This document shows, one piece after another, positions 21,001-24,000 of a stretch of DNA of 64,000 nucleotides. Made by a program: the position numbers. Origin of the DNA: Gammaproteobacteria bacterium (GTDB taxonomy: Bacteria; Pseudomonadota; Gammaproteobacteria; JAJFKG01); assembly GCA_021156325.1 (NCBI GenBank), contig JAJNDI010000001.1, positions 30,816-94,815 of the forward strand, written 5' to 3'. Every line of letters starts with the position of its first letter. Positions within the stretch are counted from its first letter, which is position 1.

Positions 21001-24000
21001 GCAGGCTATACGTTAGGCGCTGCTGATTTGCTTCGCCGTGCCATGGGCAAGAAAAAACCCGAAGAAATGGCAAAACAACGGGCTGTCTTTTTAGCAGGGG
21101 CTAGTAAACGAGGTGTTAATGCGACCATTGCTTCGCATATTTTTGATTTAATGGAAAAGTTTGCAGGCTATGGTTTTAATAGATCACACTCTGCTGCCTA
21201 TGCATTATTATCTTATCAAACAGCCTGGTTAAAAGCCCATTATCCCAGCGAATTTATGGCAGCGGTATTATCATCTGATATGGATCACACCGATAAAGTC
21301 GTTCGACTCATCGATGAATGTAAACAATTAGGCATTCCCATCATTGCACCTGACATTAATCACAGCGAGTACTATTTTACCGTCAATATCCGGGGTGAAA
21401 TTGTTTATGGACTAGGAGCTATCAAAGGGGTAGGTGAAAGCGGCGTAGAAACCATTGTGAGAGCCCGCCAACAGGGAGGTCCTTTCTCAGATTTGTTTGA
21501 TTTTTGCAGCCGAATTGATTTAAGCGCTGTCAATCGCCGGGCACTTGAATCTTTGATCCGATCAGGAGCGATGGACAGCTTGAAAATACACCGTGCGAGT
21601 TTAGCGGCAACCCTTGAACGGGCTATTCACTCGATAGAACAAGCAGCGATGGCCAAAGAAGCAGGGCAGCTCGATCTCTTTTCGCTGTTGGAAGAAGAAA
21701 GCCCGACGCCTCTTGCCGTGCATTACATTGAGGCACCGCTTTTATCCGATGTGTTACGTTTGCAAGGTGAAAAAGAAACGTTGGGATTGTATTTTAGCGG
21801 GCACCCTTTAAAAGCCTATGAAACAGAATTATCTTATTTCGTGACTACCTCGATTGCCAACCTTCGTCCTGCACGGGATAAACCGATTTTAATTGCAGGT
21901 ATGATCGCGGCCGTTAGGACACTTCAAACCAAACGAGGTGACAGGATGGCTTTTATCACAATAGATGATCAAACAGCCAGGATGGAAATTGCAGTATTTT
22001 CAGATTTATATCATTCAGTGAGGCCGCTTATTATAAAAGATAATCTCGTGATCGTAGAAGGCGAAGTGAGTATCGATGAATATAGTGGCGGCTACAAAAT
22101 GAGTGCCCGCAGTATTTATACCATCACCGAAGCTCGGGAGCGTTATGCCCGATATTTAAAATTGGATCTGCAGCAACAGGATGCTAAGGATATCATTGAA
22201 CAATTACAACTGAGTCTAAAACCCTTTTGCGGGGGCAAATGCCCCATCCAGGTTTATTATCAGCGCGAAGGGGCGAGGGCTGCCTTTATGTTAGGAGAAC
22301 AATGGCGCGTGCGTCTTGAAGACACTTTATTGTCCGAATTGCGCGAGCTTTTGGGGAAAGACCGGGTTGTTGTTTGTTATGAAGAGGTTCAAGCGGAGAG
22401 TAGAATGAGGTATAATATGCTTGGAACTGTGGAGAAAGCCGAATGAATTTGAACTTTTTGGATTTTGAGCAGCCGATTGCCGAATTGGAAGCAAAGATTG
22501 AAGAATTACAGCGAGTAGGTAAAGACGGCAAGATCAATATCAATGAAGAGGTCATGCGCTTAAAAGGCAAAAGCCAGTCGCTGACAAAATCGATCTTCTC
22601 TTCATTAACGCCATGGCAAGTGACGCAGATGGCACGTCATCCTTTGCGGCCTTATACCAATGATTATATCCACCTGTTATTTACTGAATTTGATGAATTA
22701 CATGGTGACAGACATTATAAAGATGATTTAGCCATTGTGGGCGGTATTGCCCGTTTGGACGGCAAACCGGTGATGATCATCGGCCAGCAAAAAGGACGTA
22801 CTACCAAGGAAAAAGTACGCCGCAATTTTGGAATGCCGCATCCCGAAGGTTATCGAAAGGCATTACGATTAGCCAAGTTGGCGGAACGCTTTAAGCTGCC
22901 TATTTTAACCTTTATTGATACACCGGGTGCTTATCCGGGGATCGGCGCAGAAGAACGCAATCAAAGTGAGGCCATTGCACGTAATTTATTTGAGATGGCC
23001 GATCTTCGAGTTCCTATTATTTGCACGGTAATCGGCGAAGGGTGTTCAGGCGGCGCCTTGGGAATTGGAGTAGGCGATGCTGTTTTAATGCTGCAATACA
23101 GTTATTATTCCGTGATTTCCCCGGAAGGCTGTGCATCGATTTTATGGAAAAGTGCAGACAAAGCATCCGTTGCTGCCGAAGCCATGTGTATTACGGCTGA
23201 TAAATTAAAACAGTTTGGTTTGATTGATAACATCATTGAAGAACCAGTAGGCGGCGCCCACCGTGATCCAAAAGTCATGGGGGAGAGACTGAAAGCGGTA
23301 TTGGTGAAAGAGCTGGTTAACCTGGAAGCAATGAGTATCGATCAGTTGTTAGAACGCCGCTATGAAAGATTAATGGCATTGGGGCGTTAAGTTGATTCCG
23401 ATGTGTGTTCAGGTAAAGTGGAATGCAGAAGTTCCTCGGGGTCCTGTCACGGTGATGGAGTGTCCCGAAGCTTCGCTTCGGGAGCCCTCCCCATTCACCG
23501 TGCCACCCCTCGGAAAGATCCTTTGAATATATCCTTTGTTTTATATCCCACTCTTCCACGCAAGCGGGAGAGGGTCGCGCCCTTCGGCGTGGGAAAAGGG
23601 CGCTGCGCAGCAGTATAGTTAAAACTCGTTAGATGCGAAAAACATAAAATAATGTTGAACAATACCCAGTGGTATGAAACTTTATTAACCACATGCCAAC
23701 ATAAAAACATCGATATTAAACACTGGATCGTTGCTTTTAGCGGCGGCGTTGATTCCTGCGTTCTGCTTCATTTATTACAGCAAACAACGACATTGCCTAT
23801 TACGATGGTGCACGTTAATCATCAATTAAATAAAAATGCAAAAGCCTGGGAAGATCATTGTAAAACACTTTGTAAGACCTGGGGCTTGGAATGCAGGGTT
23901 GAAACCGTCAATGCGAAACCTGCGGCGGGCCAAAGCCCCGAAGCCGCTGCTAGAGAGGCGCGTTATGCCGCTCTTGAAAAACATATCACAACAAAAAATC

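Follow-up and report, generated by a model that had tools for sequence, protein, structure and literature searches.

The 64,000-nucleotide (nt) stretch of contig JAJNDI010000001.1 analysed here, referred to throughout as the window, belongs to an uncultured gammaproteobacterium and contains two unusually GC-rich intergenic spacers, one between accA and tilS and the other between rimI and prfC, which share a stretch of sequence. With an estimated probability of about 0.8, the shared sequence represents two worn, oppositely oriented copies of a dispersed non-coding repeat of the BoxC/PIT/TM_ECO kind, present here in a long-linker form. The repeat is laid out in three blocks, namely a C-block (CCCTCNCCC), a 14-nt GC-rich mini-hairpin linker, a second C-block, a loop and a G-block (GGGNGAGGG). 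In the long-linker form, the 14-nt GC mini-hairpin GCCGCTTCGCGGCA stands in place of the 3-nt loop that usually separates the like blocks. Repeats of this kind are known from many bacteria and the finding is to that extent an ordinary one; what makes it worth recording is the long-linker form, together with a lead that connects the repeats to genes for DUF559 nucleases.

The copy in the rimI-prfC spacer (copy 2) is nearly canonical and occupies positions 52976-53035 of the plus strand, as delimited by the match to an external consensus, a profile hidden Markov model (HMM) and the positions of the blocks. It begins with a mini-hairpin (ACTGTCCAGT, 52976-52985) and a single G, followed by the first C-block (CCCTCTCCC, 52987-52995), the 14-nt linker (GCCGCTTCGCGTCT, 52996-53009), the second C-block (CCCTCTCCC, 53010-53018), an 8-nt loop (GCTTGGCA, 53019-53026) and a G-block (GAGAGAGGG, 53027-53035) with one mismatch to GGGNGAGGG. 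The decayed copy in the accA-tilS spacer (copy 1), delimited by its alignment with copy 2 and by the family HMM, lies on the minus strand at 23547-23611, where the same order is read as a mini-hairpin (GCTGCGCAGC, 23602-23611), a single G, a degenerate C-block (CCCTTTTCCCAC, 23589-23600), a 14-nt linker (GCCGAAGGGCGCGA, 23575-23588), an exact C-block (CCCTCTCCC, 23566-23574), an 8-nt loop (GCTTGCGT, 23558-23565) and a degenerate G-block (GGAAGAGTGGG, 23547-23557). Thus, only one of the three blocks of copy 1 is exact, the other two carrying insertions or deletions. A first-pass annotation of the window had pointed to these spacers on the basis of a 19-mer between accA and tilS (ccacgcaagcgggagaggg, found at 23556-23574), a reverse-complement core shared with the other spacer (the 14-mer CCCTCTCCCGCTTG, at 23561-23574 on the minus and 53010-53023 on the plus strand), a direct duplication of CCCTCTCCCGC in the rimI-prfC spacer (starting at 52987 and 53010, 23 nt apart) and a palindrome in the same spacer in which GCCCTCTC (52986-52993) pairs with GAGAGGGC (53029-53036), all of which were found as described. 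Its wider suggestion of a dispersed structured element stands in so far as the two sites hold homologous repeat copies of a family dispersed beyond this genome, and falls in its specifics of a small RNA or a miniature inverted-repeat element, as discussed below.

A gapped local alignment of the two copies has identical residues in 49 of its 70 columns and a score of 20.5, which none of 2000 dinucleotide shuffles reached when both strands were considered (mean 9.1 +/- 1.5, maximum 19), and the MAFFT alignment agrees with the homology of the two copies. Since the alignment lies beyond every shuffle, the copies are, on the strength of their alignment, homologous and mutually inverted; their orientations are opposite relative to the flanking genes, which are co-directional. 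Patterns allowing up to one or two mismatches would be expected to occur by chance 0.27-0.39 times in the window.

The published family provides the frame for this assignment. The BoxC motif, CCCTCNCCC N3-6 GGGNGAGGG N3 GGGNGAGGG, was described in the 1990s, was found again in 2000 as PIT (potential intrastrand triplex; Hoyne/Maher) and was described as TM_ECO by Holder et al. in 2015 (PMC4666352). Escherichia coli K-12 carries 23 copies, always intergenic and without strand bias, five of them as inverted pairs, and 3610 copies were reported from 262 proteobacterial genomes; the motif is statistically associated with local rearrangement between strains, and its single strand forms a stable triplex in vitro (PMC4666352). 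The strand on which the pattern is written has a single pyrimidine block (CCCTCNCCC) and a pair of purine blocks (GGGNGAGGG), so that the opposite strand shows two C-blocks and one G-block. The published blocks are three in number, 9 nt long and allow at most one mismatched position; copy 2 shows three such blocks on its minus strand (CCCTCTCTC, with one mismatch, and GGGAGAGGG twice), and copy 1 does not. By inspection, the rules for base triads could be satisfied at about 8 of 9 positions of copy 2. The window copies resemble the published motif in the sequences and the order of the blocks, in their GC-richness and in their occurrence in either orientation between genes, there being one copy on each strand, which agrees with the published behaviour of BoxC/TM elements.

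The sequence was also sought in other genomes. With the bare 14-mer as query, viral contigs gave at least 132 matches; among the 132 listed, 56 form the right arm of the palindrome CCCTCTCCCG-CAAG-CGGGAGAGGG, and 34 of these 56 have a third block 1-6 nt away (CCCTCACCC upstream or GGGTGAGGG downstream). A scan of genomes, one per species, with the pattern GCCGNNNNGCGNNNCCCTCTCCCGC (GCCG N4 GCG N3 CCCTCTCCCGC), to which both window copies conform, gave at least 120 matches, the motif being common in high-GC genomes. Among the matches listed, there are 43 distinct copies of the composite CCCTCACCC-GCCGCTTCGCGGCA-CCCTCTCCC-GCAAGC-GGGAGAGGG, with a 14-nt linker. The hosts of these include Thermoanaerobaculia (Acidobacteriota), Deinococcus, Abditibacterium (Armatimonadota), Dehalococcoidia (Chloroflexota), Planctomycetota, Myxococcota, Alpha- and Betaproteobacteria, and a candidate taxon in which five contigs carry copies. 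The cross-phylum consensus CCCTCACCCGCCGCTTCGCGGCACCCTCTCCCGCAAGCGGGAGAGGG and copy 2 agree at 41 of 47 positions. Because the search pattern itself fixes half of that consensus, the fair figure is the 23 of 29 positions left free by it, with two one-base gaps. A scan of metagenome contigs with a 21-base pattern gave 12 matches, all from high-GC organisms; the organism of the window is absent from these 12 and from the matches listed in the scan of genomes. Complete long-linker copies from the metagenome scan carry the full TM_ECO pattern as well, as in CCCTCACCC-GCCGCTGCGCGGCA-CCCTCTCCC-GCTTGC-GGGAGAGGG-ATG-GGGTGAGGG (locus L246), which ties the long-linker form to the published family; in some copies the 14-nt linker is present in addition to the normal 3-nt loop and a fourth block. 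Judged by these comparisons, copy 2 belongs to a family that is near-invariant in many phyla. In the Abditibacterium metagenome-assembled genome (L164, L174, L183, L201, L208, L220), the long-linker copies occur as inverted pairs about 100 nt apart, each copy being preceded by a further mini-hairpin (e.g. GTCGCTTCGCGTCGG) and a TTTCCC block, an arrangement which suggests a larger composite element in that genome.

Several observations weigh against the assignment to this family. The loops of both window copies lie outside the published limits, the first being 8 nt instead of 3-6 nt and the second, bridged by a mini-hairpin, 14 nt instead of 3 nt, and it is for this reason that the copies are called a long-linker variant, with copy 1 as a decayed one. 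They differ from the published motif further in the small palindrome that precedes each C-block, in the insertions and deletions of copy 1 and in their host, a 43% GC gammaproteobacterium; the published survey records the motif from Proteobacteria only and admits loops of at most 6 nt (PMC4666352). The profile HMM built from the foreign copies recognised copy 2 with an E-value of 3.7e-10, which is partly circular because the pattern used to gather the consensus had itself come from the window, and copy 1 (23576-23545) with an E-value of 6e-4, mainly through the block common to both copies; there was no further match in the window. When folded as single-stranded DNA and compared with shuffles, neither copy is more stable than expected (z-scores of +0.1, -0.6, -0.1 and -1.5, the last two for copy 1), the program used (ViennaRNA) modelling hairpins and not triplexes, so that folding lends no support to a structure at these sites. 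For the E. coli motif, neither duplex DNA nor in vivo footprinting revealed a triplex, and earlier studies saw no activity as promoter or terminator (PMC4666352). Finally, the 64 kb of the window show no more than two copies.

The accA-tilS spacer spans 261 nt (23391-23651) between accA (22443-23390; TIGR00513, 517 bits, an NCBIfam equivalog) and tilS (23652-25031; NCBIfam equivalog), and the rimI-prfC spacer spans 181 nt (52948-53128) between rimI (52486-52947; TIGR01575, 129 bits) and prfC (53129-54721; NF001964, 856 bits, from the ATG at 53129), all four genes being on the plus strand and identified by NCBIfam equivalogs. In three relatives with the accA-tilS gene order, the corresponding spacers measure 38, 0 and 3 nt and contain neither C- nor G-blocks; on this comparison, the extra DNA between accA and tilS arrived by insertion. 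No relative of this organism's TilS exceeds 47% identity, which makes a fine-scale comparison impossible. Contigs of the organism from two other sources, a JGI metagenome and an independent sequencing run, match the window at 99.9-100% identity across the spacers; they lie almost wholly within the window, one of them extending about 190 nt past its end. One contig (L262, Logan SRR35179664), 100% identical to the window, ends at 53015, inside the second C-block of copy 2. This end could be a repeat-induced assembly break and, if so, would hint that the sample contains other copies with this linker.

The means by which such repeats spread may be indicated by the genes they adjoin in other genomes. 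In E. coli, the best match to a canonical copy falls on the last codons of ycjD, which encodes a DUF559 protein of 117-122 amino acids (aa). The end of the protein, ...SPSPQPSP*, corresponds to a translated C-block, 3 nt and a second C-block, with the G-block following the stop codon. One of the published K-12 copies is listed between fabI and ycjD, at 1,351,204-1,351,239 (PMC4666352); the fabI-ycjD interval of another E. coli strain holds matches to the canonical query, and the K-12 annotation around ycjD has no repeat feature. Most of the 120 closest homologues of YcjD, chiefly from other enterobacterial genera, end in PSPRPSP, and read-through forms end in PSPWKGEGE. In a second set of 120 homologues, collected with a seed from the Hyphomicrobiales, the N-terminus is in most cases extended by ...PSPLAGEG..., and 50 members carry tails at the C-terminus such as PSPAAARHPLPQGEREG, which is the long-linker form in translation. 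Peptide signatures derived from the element occur in 72 of 120 and 86 of 120 DUF559 homologues and in 0 of 120 TilS controls, figures to be read with the caveat that gene callers readily extend open reading frames (ORFs) through stop-free GC-rich repeats. Downstream of ycjD in E. coli ET201 (L122, 1560-1640), a duplicate of about 50 nt from the 3' end of the gene separates the element at the stop codon from the inverted element that follows, and many E. coli YcjD variants (144-160 aa) read through into the duplicated ycjD 3' end.

Three-block elements stand at the ends of DUF559 genes, often as [C-G-G] gene [C-C-G], at six loci (L122, 1161-1730, in E. coli; L170, 6750-7320; L269, 1420-1895; L267, 1835-1985; L271, 1440-1915; L174, 6960-7490) from six lineages, namely E. 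coli, Hyphomicrobiales, Burkholderiaceae, Methylococcales, Binatia and Abditibacterium. The final codons of these genes are in many cases formed by the element (...PSPRPSP*). The block sequence differs at the Binatia locus and the layout is the same. The genes at the element-flanked loci all belong to PF04480, and their contexts include hsdR|hsdS of a type I restriction system, an ABC transporter permease|ATPase pair and, in E. coli, the position after sapF. Among solved structures, YcjD matches chain 3hrl_A, an entry named 'Endonuclease-Like Protein', and YcjD-like proteins have been predicted to be Vsr-related PD-(D/E)XK nucleases (PMC1189080). It is tentatively proposed, at rather less than even odds, that BoxC/PIT/TM repeats, the long-linker form included, are non-autonomous partners of DUF559 nuclease genes, the nuclease driving their copying as RAYTs do for REPs. 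In this scheme, a typical unit inserted into operons would read [C-G-G element]-DUF559-[C-C-G element], and the fold-back motif would be recognised or cut by the nuclease, which would thereby drive its copying. Counting against this proposal, the DUF559 protein sets lack phylogenetic independence, three of the six loci were selected among proteins already seen to bear the tail signature, and no DUF559 gene was detected in the window by tblastn. A separate idea, that the accA-tilS spacer is the remnant of a deleted DUF559 gene, was rejected, as tblastn revealed no trace of one. No link between BoxC/TM elements and DUF559 was found in PMC4666352 or in the searched literature mentioning 'DUF559' or 'ycjD'.

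At the two sites in the window, the copies would act, if at all, at the level of DNA, and when single-stranded they may form a fold-back hairpin or an intrastrand triplex, as the E. coli motif does in vitro. Both are probably passive relics where they now stand, copy 1 having lost most of its pairing, and each probably lies within or close to the 5' untranslated region of its downstream gene, tilS or prfC. The spread of the family would most likely have proceeded by nuclease-dependent copying tied to DUF559 (YcjD-like, Vsr-fold) genes, which such elements flank in six lineages, and not by a transposase.

The alternative that survives best, and is nonetheless improbable, is that the copies are elements of the REP/REPIN type or miniature inverted-repeat transposable elements (MITEs), moved by a RAYT or an insertion-sequence transposase encoded elsewhere in the genome. 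Like REP, BIME and REPIN elements, the window copies are short, GC-rich, palindromic and intergenic, they occur in both orientations as inserted DNA in an AT-richer genome, and the families have many copies; the strong hairpin that also lies in the accA-tilS spacer (hairpin 1, described below) resembles a REPIN-style doublet; and a single-copy protein gene flanked by the same elements is found in both systems, here a DUF559 gene in other genomes. Like MITEs (e.g. Correia/NEMIS, ERIC/IRU, RPE), they are small non-coding insertions which widen intergenic spacers and create spurious ORFs. RAYT-associated REPs have a GTAG or GTGG head next to the palindrome, and direct inspection of the sequence revealed no such head in either copy. 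Terminal inverted repeats, beyond the internal stems, and flanking direct repeats of the kind left by target-site duplication are absent at both copies, which at about 60 nt are much shorter than MITEs; the MITE proposed in the first-pass annotation is therefore not borne out. The repeat family is conserved across phyla, unlike the species-specific REPs, its consensus is the three-block BoxC/TM motif, whose describers found no transposase or integrase nearby (PMC4666352), and the gene at the ends of the elements has a PD-(D/E)XK/Vsr-like nuclease fold, unlike the IS200/IS605-like tyrosine transposase of RAYTs. No transposase-like ORF was noticed in the window, where the sole protein search was targeted at DUF559.

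Slightly less credible still is the proposal, also made in the first-pass annotation, that the spacers encode a small RNA or another structured RNA, with the GC-rich stems as its functional fold. The two elements, each flanked by co-directional genes, are probably transcribed, and the whole accA-tilS spacer folds better as RNA than its shuffles (z-scores of -3.2 and -3.5). This good fold is due to hairpin 1, a 76-nt imperfect palindrome of 67% GC identified by folding and inverted repeats at 23437-23512 (apex TCCCGAAGC-TTC-GCTTCGGGA), which folds as single-stranded DNA at -21.4 and -26.2 kcal/mol on its two strands (z-scores of -3.8 and -6.0) and is the sole significantly stable structure in either spacer. 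Thus, one of the 'two strong hairpins' claimed for the spacer is indeed strong, and the shared part, with z-scores from +0.1 to -1.5, is not. Hairpin 1 has no second copy in the window, in the rimI-prfC spacer or in 1.9 Mb of fetched loci as searched by BLAST, and it goes undetected by the family HMM. Its candidature as a family member was rejected, the stem-TTC-stem mini-hairpin and C-rich block being alike only visually. Hairpin 1 is a different insertion, separated from copy 1 by a 32-nt AT-rich stretch of 25% GC (23513-23544), and the accA-tilS spacer, treated earlier as one element, consists in this respect of an unshared hairpin and a shared part containing the 14-mer.

The remaining signals expected of an RNA gene are likewise wanting. 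In a search with Rfam covariance models, no family reached its gathering score in either spacer, three tRNAs being the only hits in the window, and at E-values up to 10 the best sub-gathering matches in the spacers (E-values of 0.14 to 8) belonged to unrelated families of eukaryotes and archaea. The spacers contain no terminator-like site, no run of T follows any stem, and promoter-like matches are no more numerous than in shuffles. In short, neither copy shows the signals of an RNA gene, of a terminator or of a transposon end. An RNA would also have to be reconciled with the opposite orientations of the copies relative to the flanking genes, with the absence of the whole spacer in the relatives and with a sequence that is near-invariant across phyla without compensatory changes, half of the paired positions being fixed by the search pattern.

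An equally slight chance is given to the view that the copies are cis-regulatory sites of tilS and prfC, or terminators or attenuators of accA and rimI, which resemble each other by coincidence. It is true that a translation-related gene, tilS or prfC, follows each copy and that another gene precedes it. The missing T-runs, the differing orientations, the three relatives that keep the accA-tilS order and manage without the spacer, the occurrence of the sequence next to unrelated genes in many phyla and the lack of promoter or terminator activity of PIT elements in E. coli (PMC4666352) all argue otherwise. A chance match between two low-complexity GC-rich stretches is very unlikely, since, for all that the motif is CT-rich, that about 15 exact 14-mer matches are expected between random places of the 64-kb window by our own estimate and that 4 of 2000 shuffles reach the 14-mer score under a stringent scoring scheme, the 70-column alignment score was never reached, the two sites are the only long GC-rich intergenic islands of the window and copy 2 fits the external consensus independently at 23 of 29 unfixed positions.

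The BoxC/PIT/TM_ECO assignment thus being preferred, the spacers may be considered as features of the window. They are the only places in the 64 kb (42.6% GC) where at least 66% GC is sustained over a long intergenic stretch. The islands of about 65% GC described earlier are GC-rich as claimed, the figure itself not applying to either: the accA-tilS island has 59% GC overall, as two blocks of 67-68% GC with 32 nt of 25% GC between them, and the rimI-prfC island 74%. Spurious ORFs noted earlier across both spacers were seen again among the mechanically predicted ORFs, at 23403-23618 (plus), 23495-23710 (minus) and 23317-23559 (minus) in the accA-tilS spacer and, in the rimI-prfC spacer, as a TTG-started ORF from 52973 that runs into prfC through the repeat.

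Five exact blocks of the repeat lie in the window, where shuffles would lead one to expect about one. Two of these are lone G-blocks in coding DNA without partner blocks, GGGCGAGGG at 22271-22279, at the end of a large ORF (18928-22446), and GGGAGAGGG at 24871-24879, within tilS. The window contains another GC-rich repeat, CCCCC-TTTGAAAAA-GGGGG-mini-hairpin-GGGGG (29673-29720, 31323-31375, 62929-62947), which resembles the repeat described here in its succession of C-block, loop, G-block, GC mini-hairpin linker and second G-block, and differs in having C5/G5 blocks instead of CCCTCTCCC/GGGAGAGGG and an AT-rich loop, no sequence homology between the two being detected. Close relatives of this second repeat were observed in unrelated viral contigs (L036, 3969-4016; L091, 1498-1545 and 4154).

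For the annotation of this genome, both GC-rich islands are best masked as repeat insertions, the ORFs crossing them treated as spurious and the start of prfC placed at 53129 and not at 52973. For the family, repeats of this kind have been known since the 1990s without a function or a means of spread, their describers having sought mobility genes and found none, and the long-linker form escapes the published definitions, which allow loops of up to 6 or 10 nt, and occurs well outside the Proteobacteria. If the association with DUF559 holds, the old question of how these repeats spread would become directly testable; the partnership would explain both their near-identical sequence across phyla and the local genome instability reported for them, and it would provide a role for the E. 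coli gene ycjD.

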